Shown: one piece after another, positions 12,320 to 36,273 of the stretch
Numbering within the stretch: the stretch's first letter is position 1
Layout: each line of letters opens with the position of its first letter
Program-made: the position numbers and the translations under genes
DNA from: Escherichia phage CMSTMSU
DNA length: 64,000 nucleotides
Direction: 5' to 3' (one strand)
Sequence record: MH494197.1
Notes under the pieces: generated by a model
What the model saw: the letters and a program-made list of their open reading frames with translations, nothing else
Database searches by the model: none
What the model was told of the DNA's origin: nothing

Positions 12320-13550
12320 TTAGAACATTTGCTTGATTGCTTCAATACGCAATTCAGCAACAAAATCACGAATCTCCGATGTTTGGAGTTCACCATCTTT
12401 CACTAACTGCTGAATATCAGGTAATTCAACATCAGTATAACGATCATAAACTTTAATAATCAAATCTTCAAGTTCAGAATCAATTTCTTTGTTCAAAATG
12501 AAGTTTTCCAGTACTTTGTAAAGGAAATCTTCACCACCATTGTTTTTGATATTCATATCCAGTAAGATTTGTCCCATTTCAACTGGGGTCTTCTTACGGA
12601 AGGTTTTAATATCTTCACGGAAACGCTTGATGTAATTACTAACTTCACGTACTTAACTGGAACCTTAATGGAACCGTTAAGTACTGAATCATTATTACTT
12701 CTTCATTTTCAAAGTACTGTCCATAAGAAATATGGTTTATATTCTTCTGTACAATTTACAGAGATAGAATCAATTAATTCCAGACGTTTCTTGGTAACTG
12801 GAACTGTAGTAAATGCCTTTTCGTAATAACCAAATTGTACCAGAGTTTTGATAAACTTGGAAGGGTTTTCTTCAGAAAGTGCTTTTCGAATTCAACAAAA
12901 CACGATCTGGAACTAGATGGTCTAGTTCACCAGTACTAACCATATCTTTACACATTGTCATAGTATCATCATGGATTGTAAAGTCGGAGAACGCGTAGCG
13001 AAACGGGCCAAACGTAGAACACGCAATGGATCTTCTTTAAAGTGTTCTGATACATGACGAAGTACTTTGTTCTTGATATCAGCTTTCCCGCCATAAGGGT
13101 CGATGTGAATCTGGAGTACTGGATCATATGCAATACTATTGATTGTGAGATCACGACGATATAGATCTTGTTCTAGTGTCACACCTTTTGTATTCACTTC
13201 GAAACCACCATATCCAGTACCAGTTTTACGCTCAGTACGGGCTAATGCGTGTTCATTACCTTCTGGACTTAGATATACAGGAAATCCTTACCTACTTGCT
13301 TGTATCCAATACTTTGCAAGTATTTAATATCGGATTCGGTAGCACCGACAATAACATAATCTTTGTCTTTTGCACGGATGCCCATTAAACGGTCACGAAC
13401 GTAGCCACCAACCAAATACTTTTTCATATCATTCCCCATCAACCAATCACGTAGACGTTCCCAGAAGCCTTTTGGCTGATATTCTGGATATTCATATTCA
13501 TCTGTTCCTTGCTCGGAAACACCCCAATCTTCTTCTAATACTGTAATCAC
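12320..13550 (-). CDS. tRNA nucleotidyltransferase (CCA-adding enzyme), frameshifted
   Basis: [15 protein letters not shown]...KDKDY head-domain motifs in 13269..13550; [13 protein letters not shown] and [11 protein letters not shown] in 12958..13197; C-terminal fragment 12320..12577. Confidence 0.7.
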
Positions 13551-15062: not shown

Positions 15063-15575
15063 TCATATAAAGTAATTATACATTTTATTGTACAATATAA
15101 AAGGTCTTTCACATTATCATAAGTAATATCAGATATATCATGAATTAATGATAACTGAAAAATGAAGCTTCGTCTATCTCTACTGGGATTATAACATCAT
15201 AGTCTTCGTCAATTTTATGGGTGTAGTATTTTATGTGATCAGCATTCAACACAAGGTTGTATTTTGTATCATCTTCAATTAATCCGACAAATTGAGATTT
15301 TTGATTAATAAAAATCCAATCCCAACACAACGGTTATCTGGATATGGATAGTACCATCTATTAATAACTAGGTGTTCAGGTAAGTCCATATCATGTGTTG
15401 ATATTAAAGATTTTACAATTCCCATCCGAGAATAATTCATAATTAAAACTCCATAAGAAAAGGGACAGAATAATCTCTGTCCCTTTATTATATCTTACTC
15501 TTCGTCTTCAGTCAAGTCTTCTTGAACTGGATGTTCGGGTGTTACGGCGATGCAATTTGATGCTTTTGTCTTTAC

Positions 15576-15824
15576 CTAAGACAGTTTCCATTTTTCAAAT
15601 GAATCACCAATTGCTTTGTATAAATCTGCATCATCGGCGGTGACAATCTTACCACCTGATGTTAAAGTTACGGAATATTGATTCTTATGCTCTTTCTTCA
15701 CATGAACACCGATATAAAGTACTGAAGAATCACTAAATTTCGTTAGTACATTTGCTTCTGCATGAATCGCGTCATTGATTGCTGGAGTAATATCAACATT
15801 ACCTTGGATAACTAAATCTAGCAT
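15576..15824 (-). CDS. putative ribosome hibernation promoting factor (HPF/RaiA-like)
   Basis: MLDLVIQGNVDITPAINDAIHAEANVLTKF...VTLTSGGKIVTADDADLYKAIGDS follows the HPF pattern (L.ITG.N.EIT.AL...V..K..KL ... GG.I.A...DMY.AID). Confidence 0.4.
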   Translation of the reverse strand: MLDLVIQGNVDITPAINDAIHAEANVLTKFSDSSVLYIGVHVKKEHKNQYSVTLTSGGKIVTADDADLYKAIGDSFEKWKLS

Positions 15825-15839
15825 AATTTACCTACCTTT

Positions 15840-16457
15840 TTAGAGTGAGCTTAACAGCAAATCCGCTCTGTTTGTAACTTGGCGATACCACAAGGAATTC
15901 ATGATTTCTTTCTTGAACTTCTTAGGGTTATCCATTTTAACACTTTTCCAAAGTTTGTCAAATGTTGCCAACTTATCAACGCCCATTGTGTATGACATTT
16001 CAAACAGGATACGCTGCTGTTCTTTTGTCAGATTAACTGCATCTTTCTTCTGCATCAATAGTGTAAAGTCCTCGTAAGTCCTTTTCATATCTTGCATTAA
16101 AAGTTTGTTGGCCTGTGCTTTGGTAATCCCGTTTCTGTACTTCATTGCATCAGAATCTTTCTTACCCAAATAATGCCCATAACCAATTGTATAATTACCT
16201 TTCATGTCCTTATAGGGATGAAATTTAGAATTGTGGAAAGGAACTCCAACTTTCCCACCAAGTAATTTACGTTTGTTCTTGGACTGAAATTCAATAGAAC
16301 CTTCAGCTTCTTTGATGTGATCGACAATTTCTGGATCTTTATAATCAAACAGTACAGTCACATCTGGTAACAATACGTTCTTCAAATCCTCTTTTGTTGG
16401 GATAAAGATACCCTGAGAAGTATGAAGAGTTGCATTTAAGTTGATATTCTTCAACAA
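15840..16457 (-). CDS. T4-type lysozyme (glycoside hydrolase family 24) with about 100 aa N-terminal extension
   Basis: TIGYGHYL and SLWYRQVTNRADLL match T4 lysozyme TIGIGHLL and SRWYNQTPNRAKRV. Confidence 0.8.
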   Translation of the reverse strand: MLKNINLNATLHTSQGIFIPTKEDLKNVLLPDVTVLFDYKDPEIVDHIKEAEGSIEFQSKNKRKLLGGKVGVPFHNSKFHPYKDMKGNYTIGYGHYLGKKDSDAMKYRNGITKAQANKLLMQDMKRTYEDFTLLMQKKDAVNLTKEQQRILFEMSYTMGVDKLATFDKLWKSVKMDNPKKFKKEIMNSLWYRQVTNRADLLLSSL

Positions 16458-16517
16458 AATGACATAATCTTCAATCTGTACATTTTAGGTTTAAATTTCT
16501 GTGCAATAGAATAATAA

Positions 16518-16718
16518 CTATCTCGGTTGAACCGTATAATGTTTCTCGCTGCTTGGAACTGCCTTTGGTACTGATACCTTTAGTAGTTCCTGCTTTTGAA
16601 TTTGTACAACTTGTGGTTTTAAATTATGCACCTGACTTTCGTCTAATGATGATGCACGATCACTTTGAGAAAAACCATAAAATCCAATCGCAGCGAATAG
16701 GGCTGATGAAACTAACAC
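16518..16718 (-). CDS. small membrane protein upstream of lysozyme (holin or signal-anchor candidate)
   Basis: N-terminal hydrophobic stretch LVSSALFAAIGFYGF; position next to lysozyme. Confidence 0.25.
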   Translation of the reverse strand: MLVSSALFAAIGFYGFSQSDRASSLDESQVHNLKPQVVQIQKQELLKVSVPKAVPSSEKHYTVQPR

Positions 16719-16928
16719 GCCTATGGCAATTTTAGTTTTCAGTGCTTTTTCGCTTTTTCAAAACGCCTCCTTTGTTGGTTGTTAACAATGAGCAATCACA
16801 AAGAGGGCAAAGAGGCCATTTGCAAAAGCCTCATTGGACTTTCTACAGTACTCATTTGTTCTTTGGAACATTTAAGTAGTATAGCATACTTTTTAGTTAT
16901 ATCAAGACCTATTTACCAAATAACCACA

Positions 16929-17320
16929 TTAATCGTAGTATGTTCTACCAATGGTGATGTGATATTTGAAATATTTAGATGCCAAACCCAGTTCATTACG
17001 AATATGTGCAATGAAATCATCTTCAAACTCTATGATAAAGAATGACCGTTTCTTATTGTCTTTTACTTCTTCGATGAAAGGATCGAACTTAATCTTAACT
17101 TTCATACCATCGTACTTTTTCCAGTACTCTGGATTTGGTGGCACTTCACCACGAACGATACTGACATGTGCTCCCCATTGTGGGTCTTTAATATCAATAT
17201 GTAAGTCAGTTCTGATGAAGTACTGGTAGTATCGAACCAACTGTAATGGAAGTTGCAGTACTAACCAGAAGTCCTTCTTCTTTTCATAGTGCCACGATCT
17301 GGATCATACACCAGAGTTCC
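16929..17320 (-). CDS. putative 2H phosphoesterase (LigT/Acb1-like)
   Basis: Two H-x-[ST]-x motifs (HVSIV and HITIG) about 80 aa apart in a protein of about 130 aa. Confidence 0.35.
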
Positions 17321-30257: not shown

Positions 30258-32977
30258 TTAATGCCAACGTGTACCAGAGCTTGAAGGAACACCAGAACTT
30301 GCAGGGATAGCAGAACCACGCTTGGTTGTACTAGGTCTGTATGTCAAGAATCGTGTTACCTTTTCCGTATCAATTGACGTGATACTCGTACTTCCAGTAA
30401 CAATATCACCAACGTATACGTTTGTCAATGTCTCATCAAGAAGAGTTGTACTGATAACGTATGCCGCTTTTCTTGTGTTACGGTTCATTTGAATGTAAAG
30501 ATAAAAAGTACTGTTAGCTGGGTTAGTTTTAATAGTACTTAATTCTATGGTTTGAATCGCTAATCTATCAAACATACCACCAAGGAATACCGGAACTTCA
30601 CGGGTGAAGTACACCGTGAAACCTTCAGCAACATCTTGTGAAACTACTACGATTTTATCTTGTACAGTTCCTGAACCATCAATCAACCCATCCATCTGTG
30701 CTGATGTTGTCCCAAAGAGACTAAACACTGCTTTAGTTTGATAATCTGAATCTTGAAGATGATAGTATCCAAATCCAACACCGGTATAACTCCGTGCTGG
30801 AATGCATTGCCATTATCTATGTAGCTGGATGACATAAATCGGTTAGATGTAATCAAACCATTCACTGTTTTAGCAATCATCAATTTGAATTGAGCATTAC
30901 GGTTGTGAAAACTGATGAACTGCATCAACCCCAATATAACCAAATCCAGAATACTTTGCAACAGTTAGACCAGTACAGCGTTTCATATAGGCTTCAGTTA
31001 CAATACCTGTTACAGAATTAAGTGTTTCGTATCTAGAACTCACCATAGTCGCAGAACTAATATTGGTTCCTGAAATGGTAACATCAACTTCAGAATATAT
31101 TGCATAACCTTGGTTATTGCCTAAGTTATATGCAGAAACCACCGCAATAGATTTTGAGAAAGAACTATCTGGTACATAATATAAAGCAATTTTACCAGTA
31201 AATGCTCCTACTATTCCAATATTAGCAAGTATTTCTTGTTTTAATGTTTCCAGAACATTATCACCAATTGTATAAGAACCATCAAATTCTAAAGTATCTG
31301 GGTTAAACAAACCACCACTTGTTTTGTATACACCTTCAATGAATGATGTCCCATAGCATTTAACTGAACCGTCAGTGTCAATTAATGAAATCATACCTGT
31401 ATATTTGTAGTTGTCGCCGAGGCGAATTCGGTTGGCTTGTGGTGCAAAACCATTAAGTGTTGTATTGTTTTGTACTGAATTGAACTGGAAGGTTGGTTCA
31501 GTACCAATTTCAGAAAATACTGTATTGTTATAGCCATATGACTCATCTTCATATGTTCCAGAACATGCTAACAGTACTTTACGTTTATCAATAAAACGTG
31601 TTCCTAAAAGGTTTTCACCTACTGCACTACCATATGTTGGTGCAACGTTTACAAATTTGGAATTGTTCGCTTTACGAGTACTGGCAACCCAACTATCATA
31701 TGGTGTTCCTGTTACGTTATAAACCTGAATACCATAGGTTTCAGATGAACTCCAACGAGCACGTGTGCTGAATACTAAACCGTCATAGGTTTGGCATATA
31801 GAACCAACGTTACCTAATTGTGGAACACCTAACTGTGTACCCATGAAGTTATTCATCTCAATGGCAAATGGGTTTGTTAATGTGAATCCATCAACATCAT
31901 TATATTCCGCTGCTATTGGTGCTCTACTACTTCCATCAATTGATAATGATTTAGAGTTGATAGTATAAACAAAACTAAAACCACTAGCATAAACAGTACT
32001 AATATATAGATTTGATACTAAACGGTTAGTTGGGAATAATGTAATTCTAATCTTTGATAAATCTGGACTTACGTTTGCTTGTATATTATAATCTGTATAA
32101 TCTGAATATTCAACTCGTGTAACTGGTGAAGTGCATTCAAATAATGAATCATTACTAGTTCCAACTGAATATAATCTTTCATAAATTTTCAAATTATTAG
32201 CACTTGTGTAGTTAACACTTCTTAAGGTTTGACCAGAAAACCAGTAACCTTAGCAAAAGTACTCATAGTACCATCTTTAATACTACTTGTATTAACAGTA
32301 TATAATGTTAAAGCCAAACCATAGTTTGCTATAGTAGTGTCTTTGCACCACACAAATACTTTATCATTGACGATATGTGCATATAATGGTTTATCTGTAC
32401 CAAATGATGTAGCAGCGATAGAAGCGTGAATATGTGCAACTTCGTTAAATGTACCATTTGTTAAAGTGAAAATATAATTACTTGCACTAGATAGGCTAAC
32501 TAGTAATTCATAACCATTCGTTCCGATAAACTGTTTAACATTTTCAGTACTTGGAAGAATTCTAGGATGATATTTTGATGTAGTACTGATAACACTACTT
32601 TGTGTTAGTGCATCAATATTACGCAAATCACGAATGAATGCATAGTAATATCCTTCAGTACTACCATTTGTACCAGCACGTAATACCACACCAGTACCAT
32701 CATCTTCGACTATTGTTGGTTGCATACGGTATACATCTGAAAGCGACGTTGCCTTCGTATGAACCATTAACGTTTAATGGTAGATAATCCATTTCTATAC
32801 GGGAGATTGGTAACATATCAAGTATTTTTGAACTTCTGATCTTTTATAAATTGGATAGTCAACAATACCTGTATTTGCGTCTGGTGCTGTACCATTAAAA
32901 GTACGCATAGCGTACTTTCCACCAATTGCCAAATTTCCAAGTATAGCAGCACTACCAATGATGCGTTTGGATGACAT
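30258..32977 (-). CDS. tail fibre / receptor-binding protein paralog A (about 900 aa, frameshifted)
   Basis: Ser/Thr/Asn/Gly-rich fragments 30258..30728, 30897..32192, 32222..32767, 32795..32977; shares N-terminal and C-terminal modules with paralogs B and C. Confidence 0.5.
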
Positions 32978-33590: not shown

Positions 33591-36273
33591 TTACCAATTA
33601 ATTGTTCCTGTTTGTGACGGTAGACCATAACTAACTGGGAATGAAGAACCAGCAGCTTCAAGAGACGCACCGAAAATATCCAATCTTGAACGTTTTTGTA
33701 TGTTAACATTTGATATTTGTATTGAGTTTGTTTGTATAGTACCTATCCAGAAAATATTATATGCTGTAGTACCAGTCTCTGAAATAACATCAGTTGTTAT
33801 TACATATTTTGCATTACCTTGTTCCATTTTAACATATACATGAAATAATGTGTTTGCTGGATTAGCCTTAACTGTAGTTAAGTTTATACTAGTAATCGGT
33901 AATGTAAATGCTTTACCAGAAAGAATTACTGGAGTTTCTTCTGTGAAGTACACAATAAAACCTTGAGCAACGTCTTGTGAAACTACGTTAATCGGTGCAC
34001 CTTGAGCAGTCCAGTTATTATAATCAGCAATTGTAGTACCACATTTTGGAAAGTCATTTTGTTTACATAGTCTATTGCTTGGAAATAACCAAAACCAATA
34101 CCGTAAAGCTGCTGGTTGAATACCTTGCTCATAACTTGCATGTGAACCACTGATAATAAAACTATCAAATTGTGCAGTTGCTTTTGTTACATATGCTCTG
34201 AATTGGTGTGTGTTTGTATTACCAATAGTTGGGTGAGATAATGGGTCAGAACCACCTATGAAGTAGAAAGAACCACCATCATATATTGTTAAACCAACAG
34301 AAGACGATGCAAAACTACCATTACCATTTGGTGTAAAGTTACTTCCGTAAACGTTTTCTAGTACTAAACGCTTGAAGGTAATTGTAGTGATATTACCTGA
34401 ACGTGTATTCACATTCACTTCAGCAATTCTAATATAGTTCTGATATGTATTTGTAACTGTACTTAGCATTACAAATGCAGGTATATCAGTTTGTTGTGGA
34501 ACAAACAATGTCATATCTTTATAAGCAGCAGGAGATAAGTTCCAGTCGCTTAGTACTTTGGCGTATTCAGCATTTCTGAAATTATCAAGTACAGATTGAG
34601 TAACACTAATGATACCAGTTCCGTTCATATTTTTATCATATGATAGTGATTGGGAATATCTCTGACCTACCATGAATATCCCACCATTTGTAGTAACATT
34701 ATTACCACTAATGGAACTAATAAAACTCTGTTGTTCGTGTTATCTGTCACATTAGCACGTTCTGTTGTTGGCTCATAACCTTGTATGGTTCCACGTGATA
34801 AAGAATTAAACGTAAAGTTAGAGTACTTTTATGAACTGCATAAGATGGACGGAATGCACCAGAACCAGTTGAACGAGAATACTGTTTAGTACTGTTCCCG
34901 GAAGCAATTCTACGCCGTTAATAAAAGAACCAACTGCTGAACCAAATGAAGGACGAACTATGCCATTTCTGAAATCAGTTGAAATGTTCGCACGTACATT
35001 AATCATGCTATATATTGATTGTGCAGTAAATTTAGCTTTCTGCATAAGTAATGGTTCTGCTAAGTTTGGACATGCAGTACAGAATACTTCACCTGTATTC
35101 AAATAATAATATGAACTGTAAATGTTTCTTGCACCGCTATGGTCATATAACGGATCGTTGTTGAGAACATTACCAGTAGCAACCAATGCCGAACCTGTGT
35201 TTGTAACAACAAATGGTGCAGCAAATGTACCAATATCGTTCCCATTATCCAAGTTACATTGTTTAGTACTCATGTTAAAATTGAAACTATAACTATGCTG
35301 TGGTCGGGTATTGTAGTTTGCCATAGTGAACCATGCGTCACCATTCATTCTGAATCGGAAGTTCTGCGTTCCGGCTCCTGAGCAACATATAAATCGATAG
35401 ATGTCATATAAATCCCCATACCAGCCAAATTTTGTGGTACATAGACATAGGGCTTATCAGCAATATTAGTTGAGTTAACATGGTCAGTAATGATCATATT
35501 ATTCTGAGCAGTATATGTAGTATTGTAAAAGTTTTTGTTGTCCACCCCGTGATTCGGGTAGCAGTATAAGTACCGTTTGCAATATTCAACACAACACGAA
35601 CAACAACAATCTGTAGTTTGTTATTTTCATTAAGGACGTTGAATACATAAACTGAACCGTCTTCTGCCATCATAGCATACTCAATCCCACCTTCAGGTGA
35701 AATATCAGCTTGGTTCACAAAAGACCACTATGTTGAGTATCATCCAATGTACCATTCGTTACTGATATAAACAACCCATTAGTATTGGTAGATGTGTCAT
35801 TGTAACGACCTAACAGTATTTTTGAATCGGTATTGTATAAACCAATAGCAACACGGTTTGCCCCAAAATAGCCGGCTTATACTGACGGCTTGTATTAACA
35901 GTACGGCTCATATCGGTAACGGATAATGCGTTCGCTAGGTAAGAATAAAATAAACCTTCAACACTACCGTTTGTACCACTACGTAATAGTACTAATGTGC
36001 CATCGTTTTCTAAAAGTATTTTGTTTCTACGTTGGGATTGGTTTTCTGATGCACCATTAAAATCACCAGATACCCCAGCAGGTAGATAGTTATGTGTACC
36101 ATAATGCGAGATTGGAAGTAAACTAATTACATCAAGTAATTCTTCTTTGGAATATGTATCAATTTCCATATTACCATTAGCATCAAATACTTGATCATTG
36201 ATACCCTGTACTGTTCTTTTCCTTTAACTGTCACATTATGAGTGACGTCTAAGCCACCATATATTTTCTTTGA
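33591..36273 (-). CDS. tail fibre / receptor-binding protein paralog C (about 890 aa, frameshifted)
   Basis: Fragments 33591..34673, 34818..35348, 35345..35545, 35494..35718, 35810..36169; N-terminal LLPISHYG and C-terminal VVSQDVAQGFIVYFT module shared with A and B. Confidence 0.5.

Follow-up and report, generated by a model that had tools for sequence, protein, structure and literature searches.

The best-described relatives of the protein considered here are the cellular ribosome hibernation factors HPF and RaiA, the latter also known as YfiA or protein Y. HPF sits between h30 and h44 of the 16S rRNA, in a position that overlaps both the A and the P site; YfiA counteracts the formation of 100S particles that HPF drives (Beckert et al., bioRxiv 10.1101/382572). 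Phages encode homologues of these factors as well: Mizuno et al. 2019 (PMC6375957) described them in the Cronobacter jumbo phage GAP32 (111 aa) and in rV5-like coliphages (105 aa), and proposed that the phage HPFs act as competitors of cellular HPF and keep ribosomes from dimerising. The rV5-type proteins group with HPFs of gammaproteobacteria. When rV5 HPF was expressed in E. coli, it was not recovered on salt-washed 70S or 100S particles, and the level of 100S was unchanged (Mizuno et al. 2019, PMC6375957). Phage-encoded hibernation factors are a real class, whose sole tested member, rV5 HPF, was not found bound to ribosomes after high-salt washing. For the HPF/RaiA proteins of Asteriusvirus and other jumbo phages, we found no experimental work beyond genome annotations and the 2019 study.

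The DNA analysed here, which we call the window, is a stretch of 64,000 nucleotides from Escherichia phage CMSTMSU (MH494197.1). Its nearest relative is Escherichia phage fEgEco12, at 98.9% identity, and other Asteriusvirus-type jumbo coliphages (121Q, PBECO4, Turkey3 and Sharanji, with genomes of 348–384 kb) are 86–98% identical to the window region; by this similarity, the window is identified as Asteriusvirus-type jumbo coliphage DNA. Compared with fEgEco12 over 44 kb, it carries 230 deletion events and 12 insertions. The homopolymer runs are shortened in 44% of cases when they are 5 nt long, in 88% when they are 6 nt long, and in 100% when they are 7–8 nt long, and the CCWGG (Dcm) sites are corrupted in 22 of 22 instances. 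Since the deletions are concentrated in homopolymers and every CCWGG site is hit, the pattern is a base-calling signature, which we take to be that of an unpolished nanopore-type assembly. Judged from this alignment, the deletions are systematic base-calling errors and carry no biology. Example sites are at 15596, 15541, 16753, 16525, 16487, 15315 and 15158, and the same type of error breaks the genes around the one studied here: a lysozyme gene, a downstream gene of 126 aa, and the gene for the CCA-adding enzyme.

The practical lesson concerns data quality. Because the assembly is so rich in errors, many genes of the window look split or short, so that findings about ORF length are suspect throughout it, and a short or split gene anywhere in the window is not to be trusted at face value. 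A relative, Salmonella phage SD-15_S21 (positions 2060–3225 of its locus), also has a split lysozyme gene, together with a 74-aa HPF-like ORF that carries an internal deletion; its assembly probably has similar problems.

These errors bear directly on the gene of interest. The sequence-only reading had described an ORF of 82 aa at 15576..15824, and the ORF list contains exactly that, on the minus strand and with an ATG start. The length, on the other hand, does not hold. The ORF matches phrog_34864 with E = 8e-33, covering just positions 1–79 of the 110-position profile, and this partial coverage gave the first hint of an incomplete ORF. When the window is aligned with fEgEco12 and Turkey3, the cause is found at 15592..15597 (minus strand), where the relatives have a run of six A (GAAAAAATGG) and the window has five, one A being gone at about 15596. 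The deletion shifts the frame and leads to a false stop at 15576; the shifted frame reads EKWKLS-stop where the relatives have EKMETVLGKDKSIKLHRRNHPEHPVQEDLTEDEE, so that the 82-aa ORF consists of residues 1–78 of the real protein, four out-of-frame residues (WKLS) and the false stop. Two further single-base deletions lie near 15541 (15534..15543, minus strand), where AACCACCCC reads AACACCC, and with them the frame is regained for the conserved C-terminal tail. The corrected HPF/RaiA-family gene, drawn from the same alignment and the translations, spans 15495..15824 on the minus strand, with its true stop, TAA, at 15495–15497; its length in the window is 330 nt, against 333 nt (110 aa) in its closest relatives. 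In all relatives with an intact assembly whose annotations we read, the orthologue has 315–333 nt (104–110 aa), namely 327–333 nt (108–110 aa) in the E. coli-phage relatives and 315 nt (104 aa) in Erwinia phage Hallingskeid.

It might be argued that the frameshift is genuine and that this isolate either carries a pseudogene or makes a truncated protein of 82 aa, and the letters of the window, as given, do contain the stop at 15576. We regard this as very improbable. The excess of deletions over insertions (230 against 12 over 44 kb), their concentration in homopolymers and the loss of 22 of 22 CCWGG sites are what base-calling errors produce, and the lysozyme, 126-aa and CCA-adding enzyme genes are broken likewise. 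Moreover, the three single-base deletions jointly bring the frame back, which random homopolymer errors would give and a decaying gene would not be expected to, and the coding sequence, the indels aside, gives a protein identical to that of fEgEco12 (XBS49358.1). On these comparisons, the length of 82 aa is an artefact of a homopolymer deletion error in a gene of 110 aa. In terms of the structural model described below, a protein ending at the false stop would lack the entire tail and the latter half of helix 2.

That the protein belongs to the HPF/RaiA family had been proposed from a motif pattern, and the motifs listed then do match E. coli HPF and RaiA position by position in the alignment: LxIxGNxxIT at the N-terminus, VHVKKEH opposite VVLKVEK in the centre, and GGKIVTA..DLYKAIGD opposite GGEIHASA..DMYAAIDG further on. 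Profile searches with Pfam PF02482 (Ribosomal_S30AE), whose curated gathering score is 23.7 bits, bear the proposal out. The 82-aa ORF scores 35.1 bits (E = 2.3e-8) in hmmscan and the corrected 110-aa protein 41.5 bits (E = 2.3e-10), covering positions 5–84 of the 88 in the profile. Since both scores lie above the curated cut-off, the claim of homology holds; a match of this strength is far from random. A phmmer search of the PDB likewise matches ribosome-bound HPFs, the best being 9t0z, an HPF of 183 aa (E = 1.3e-7), and it matches E. coli HPF with E values of 1e-4 to 4e-3.

The predicted structure agrees. An AlphaFold2 model of the 110-aa protein, built on an alignment of 17 sequences, has a mean pLDDT of 82.7 and consists of a strand (residues 2–8), a helix (14–30), three strands (36–46, 49–56 and 59–65), a second helix (68–95) and a disordered tail (96–110). 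This is the beta-alpha-beta-beta-beta-alpha fold of the HPF/RaiA superfamily, in which two helices lie on one face of a four-stranded sheet. In a Foldseek search of the PDB with the model, ranks 1 to 34 are all HPF, RaiA, pY or RafH, mostly on ribosomes, with probabilities of 0.96–1.00 and TM scores of up to 0.77. By profile score and predicted fold, then, the product of the ORF is truly homologous to the ribosome hibernation factors HPF and RaiA, as the sequence-only reading had it. The opposite view would be that the protein is no relative of HPF at all and bears a chance likeness to it, its real kin being another small alpha/beta family such as dodecin. The dodecin family does appear among the Pfam hits below threshold: this protein gives E = 0.12, and the protein of the 121Q type scores 20.5 bits where 22.5 are required. 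Set against this, S30AE is the sole Pfam family above its threshold, and for the 110-aa protein the sole Pfam hit at E values up to 0.01; the 34 best structural matches are all hibernation factors; and sequence searches of the PDB and of protein databases give HPF and RaiA. Dodecin and the other weak Pfam hits were therefore rejected, since they fall short of their thresholds and disagree with the result of the fold search, and an identity other than HPF is effectively refuted.

The finding is correct but already known. The same gene is present at the same position, with 70–100% identity, in 121Q (gp533, YP_009102120.1), PBECO4 (YP_009150353.1), fEgEco12 (XBS49358.1), Turkey3 (XMR01176.1) and Sharanji (WNN14706.1), and the copy in the window differs from these orthologues by assembly indels only, with no biological difference. 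In RefSeq, the orthologues of 121Q and PBECO4 go under the name "HPF/RaiA family ribosome-associated protein", and phage HPFs as such were published in 2019. Other records call the orthologue "ribosome-associated inhibitor A", "ribosome hibernation promoting factor" or "sigma 54 modulation protein / S30EA", and the Sharanji genome paper places it among the translation factors. In GenBank records PP777464, MH791411, KM507819, ON286972 and MH383160, it is called "putative sigma 54", "putative sigma" or "putative sigma factor". The orthologue is no sigma factor. These last names are presumably an annotation error that goes back to "sigma 54 modulation protein", the former name of the family.

How old is the gene in phages? 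A search with a profile of the phage clade retrieves about 34 clusters of proteins of 104–110 aa at 99–198 bits, many of them from contigs that reach about 370 kb, whereas cellular HPFs drop to 45 bits or less, the best of these being long HPFs of 170–178 aa. A gap of this size argues that the gene is not a recent capture from a host; to judge by these scores, it is an old gene of the phage lineage and defines a distinct jumbo-phage clade. Members include Asteriusvirus, the Salmonella phages Munch, 7t3 and SE_PL, the Klebsiella phage fENko-Kae01 and the Erwinia phage Hallingskeid, and by these matches, the clade is conserved in Asteriusvirus and in related jumbo phages of Enterobacterales with genomes of 330–385 kb. 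A single-sequence phmmer search of 1.8 billion representatives gave, besides the phage clade, nothing but three small HPF-like proteins and six very long ones; the latter match over short or multiple stretches and are taken to be spurious. Single-sequence searching was thus insufficient, and profile searches were needed.

Selection has kept the protein. Among nine orthologues (36 pairs), dN/dS is mostly 0.13–0.3, rising to 0.5–0.54 in three pairs that involve Hallingskeid, and for the tail it is 0.04–0.36 in most of the pairs for which it could be computed. The HPF-like protein, its tail included, is under purifying selection. A conserved clade of small proteins, found specifically in jumbo phages and under such selection, is a reasonable candidate for a functional experiment.

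The surroundings of the gene are as follows. Directly 5′ of it, on the same minus strand, is a LysM/phage-lysozyme gene at 15840..16761 (Pfam Phage_lysozyme, 45.1 bits). In relatives this gene measures 912–927 nt; in the window, deletion errors (indels at 16753, 16525 and 16487) split it into ORFs at 16518..16718 and 15840..16457, and both fragments match phrog_15410. The lysozyme stop codon is at 15840–15842, and the HPF-like gene begins 15 nt later. It had been said that the HPF-like gene lies immediately upstream of the lysozyme gene; the adjacency stands, and the direction has to be reversed, as both genes are on the minus strand and the HPF-like gene is downstream in transcription. Within the 15-nt gap, a Shine-Dalgarno-like AGGTAGG can be read directly from the sequence at 15831..15837 (minus strand), 6 nt ahead of the ATG, and by this motif, the HPF-like gene has a ribosome-binding site of its own.

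At the other end, a hairpin resembling an intrinsic terminator occupies 15450..15486 (minus strand), with an 11-bp stem, AAAGGGACAGA/TCTGTCCCTTT, followed by UUUUCUUAU. The fold of the RNA has an energy of -19.5 kcal/mol (z = -4.15), and none of 200 shuffled sequences was as stable; the annotation of phage G17 has a terminator at the same place. The hairpin begins 8 nt after the true stop of the corrected gene, a position that fits the 110-aa model. The HPF-like gene and the LysM-lysozyme gene likely form a co-transcription unit. [quoted passage not shown]

The order LysM-lysozyme gene, HPF-like gene, several small ORFs and CCA tRNA nucleotidyltransferase is retained as far as Erwinia phage Hallingskeid, whose protein is 41% identical. 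In the window, genes related to translation, for the CCA tRNA nucleotidyltransferase and an aminoacyl-tRNA hydrolase, lie 2–6 kb downstream on the same strand (about 9800–13550). The start of the former is visible at 13269..13550 (minus strand), broken by errors, and the fEgEco12 counterparts are g284 (31625–32740 of the locus) and g291 (34897–35274). With the HPF-like gene, these two genes make up a loose cluster of translation functions. A tRNA scan of the window found no tRNA genes.

The two-gene unit is preceded by a promoter-like site and a conserved leader at 16762..16905 (minus strand), recognised by consensus matches and by an alignment of six sequences. The promoter match is sigma-70-like, TTGATA-16-TATACT, at 16905–16878. 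Further on, at 16836–16847, there is an invariant box, TGTAGAAAGTCC, which is kept where its flanks diverge and as far away as Erwinia phage Hallingskeid. The box was also considered, as GTAGAAAGTCC, for a promoter motif repeated in the phage, and this was rejected: there is one exact copy, and two copies with one mismatch have no common context and are near chance expectation. The leader contains, in addition, two CCTCTTTG repeats that are complementary to the lysozyme Shine-Dalgarno sequence, and RNAalifold, run on the six sequences, pairs the repeats with it, five pairs showing compensatory changes in the EJP2/Hallingskeid-type leaders. As a single sequence, the leader folds no more stably than its shuffles (z = -0.28), and an Rfam scan of 15300–17100 gave no match. 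The leader of E. coli phage EJP2 (locus 1900–2075) is almost identical to that of Hallingskeid (1955–2082), and the HPF-like proteins of the two phages are well diverged (dN about 0.36); the likeness of the leaders suggests either recombination or a very strong constraint on the leader.

It is tempting to see in this leader a means of control. In phage T4, the ribosome-binding site of gene e is sequestered in early transcripts, and the leader of the lysozyme gene recalls that case. The helix formed with the Shine-Dalgarno sequence, as read from the alignment, may exert translational control over the lysozyme gene, and we keep this as a lead only. Since the HPF-like gene has a Shine-Dalgarno sequence of its own, a single mRNA could serve for translation of lysozyme at one time and of the HPF-like protein at another. 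To speculate one step further, with lysozyme silenced by the pairing in the leader, the HPF-like protein could be made early from the shared mRNA.

What would the protein do in the infected cell? That a phage protein might manipulate host hibernation, as the sequence-only reading suggested, is plausible. In the reading that we favour, and think reasonably probable, the phage protein attaches to vacant ribosomes of the host at the site used by RaiA and HPF, keeps them as idle 70S monomers and competes with the host hibernation pathway. By analogy with RaiA and HPF, it would enter the channel that separates the head of the host 30S subunit from its body, at the A and P sites and in the path of the mRNA, on ribosomes that are not translating. 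We propose that the ribosomes would be held as single, idle 70S particles, not as 100S dimers, because the protein combines a RaiA-type tail with the lack of a dimerisation domain; PF16321, the dimerisation domain of long HPFs, is absent from the Pfam hits of the 110-aa protein. In doing so, it would compete with the RMF/HPF pathway of the host, and the phage would thereby control, and possibly preserve, the pool of ribosomes during a long infection cycle. The binding, its site, the effect on 70S and 100S particles and the benefit to the phage are what we infer from the likeness to the cellular factors.

The residues that would face the rRNA call for some caution. In the HPF/RaiA family, conserved basic residues of the helices contact the rRNA. 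We compared the phage proteins by column with 89 proteins of RaiA length and 5 of HPF length, mostly enterobacterial, in which four basic residues of the helices are about 98–100% conserved; in the Asteriusvirus proteins all four are replaced. The changes (E. coli numbering) are R17 to N, H or Q, K/R23 to E and K26 to V, A or C in helix 1, and R83 to T in helix 2. Two helix residues, K80 and K87, are retained, as K78 and K85 of the phage protein, so that the conserved basic set of helices 1 and 2 (R17, K/R23, K26, K80, R83 and K87) is not present as a whole in the Asteriusvirus proteins; the DMYxAI motif is kept. In addition, a clade-specific motif, HVKKEHK, lies on a beta2-beta3 hairpin that is shorter by three residues. 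The loss of basic residues may have weakened the canonical rRNA-binding surface. Net charge and pI, which might be thought to reveal a loss of RNA binding, are uninformative, as E. coli HPF itself has a pI of 6.5 and a net charge of -1.

An alternative, which we consider rather unlikely, is that the protein has been neofunctionalised: the S30AE fold would be kept and the binding to the decoding channel lost, and the protein would act on another RNA, protein or ribosomal site in a phage function other than hibernation. The replacement of R17, K/R23, K26 and R83 and the gain of HVKKEHK on the shortened hairpin are in its favour, as are the large score gap between the phage clade and cellular HPFs and the failure to find rV5 HPF, a member of a different clade, on ribosomes. 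The equivalog models of NCBIfam point the same way. With TIGR00741 (HPF/YfiA, cut-off 40.9), the 110-aa protein scores 34.0 bits and the 82-aa ORF 26.5, both below the cut-off, which two members of the clade, P0011 (44.5 bits) and P0019 (57.2 bits), exceed; with the short-HPF model NF007780 (cut-off 125), the protein scores 22.9 bits, also below; and with the RaiA model NF007654 (cut-off 158 bits), it gives no hit, and clade members score 20–26 bits. On the other hand, the phage protein retains other residues that are shared across the family, K78, K85, K87, Y69, A71 and I72, together with the N-terminal motif of G8, T13 and A15. The sister subclades of the Munch/7t3 type still have R17 and K26, so that the loss has been gradual and there is no clean break. 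The tail, basic and then acidic as in RaiA, is conserved and under selection, and, given that E. coli HPF is itself not basic overall, neither reading is favoured by net charge. Binding of vacant ribosomes at the RaiA/HPF site remains the reading that we prefer.

A further possibility, quite unlikely in our estimate, is that the jumbo-phage S30AE clade acts as a dedicated viral factor against hibernation or as a guard of the ribosomes. With its remodelled helix surface and RaiA-like tail, the protein would sit on host ribosomes so as to exclude host RMF and HPF, and perhaps ribosome-targeting defence nucleases, in a manner that would be quickly reversible for phage mRNAs. If this were so, productive infection of stationary-phase or dormant cells would be allowed.

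How, finally, does the protein compare with the systems already described? With the phage HPFs of Mizuno et al. 2019, it has in common that a gene with an S30AE domain occurs in a large phage (>130 kb) of Enterobacterales; the rV5-type HPFs, however, are a separate acquisition and belong to a different clade, and the Asteriusvirus protein was outside that study. With the long HPFs of Firmicutes, Thermus and Actinobacteria, which join S30AE to PF16321, it shares a homologous N-terminal domain, but it is without the C-terminal dimerisation domain, and formation of 100S particles by the long-HPF mechanism is therefore impossible. E. coli short HPF (YhbH; 95 aa) has the same domain and fold, is 30% identical in alignment and has the N-terminal LNIxGxNxEIT and the DMYxAI motifs in common with the phage protein. 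Unlike the 110-aa phage protein, which is tailed and without the same four basic residues, short HPF has no C-terminal tail and makes 100S dimers with RMF. The sequence of the domain does not settle whether HPF or RaiA is the nearer relative, as the phage-only HMM scores both alike (HPF about 35 bits, RaiA 29–38 bits), and an assignment by domain sequence was rejected; it is the architecture of the tail alone that points to RaiA. E. coli RaiA (113 aa) is only 23% identical, and differs from the phage protein in having R17, R23, K26 and R83 and a beta2-beta3 hairpin three residues longer. Nevertheless, the phage protein has the architecture of the RaiA subtype, a single S30AE domain of similar overall length, with a C-terminal extension past helix 2, some 20 aa in this subtype, and no dimerisation domain. 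Helix 2 continues into the basic KLHRRNHP, followed by the disordered tail that ends in the conserved acidic DLTEDEE, and this succession of basic and acidic segments is conserved across the phage clade. In RaiA, too, an Arg-Arg pair stands past helix 2, R95-R96 corresponding to R93-R94 of the phage protein, and the C-terminus is acidic, with FVEEVEEE in the place of DLTEDEE.
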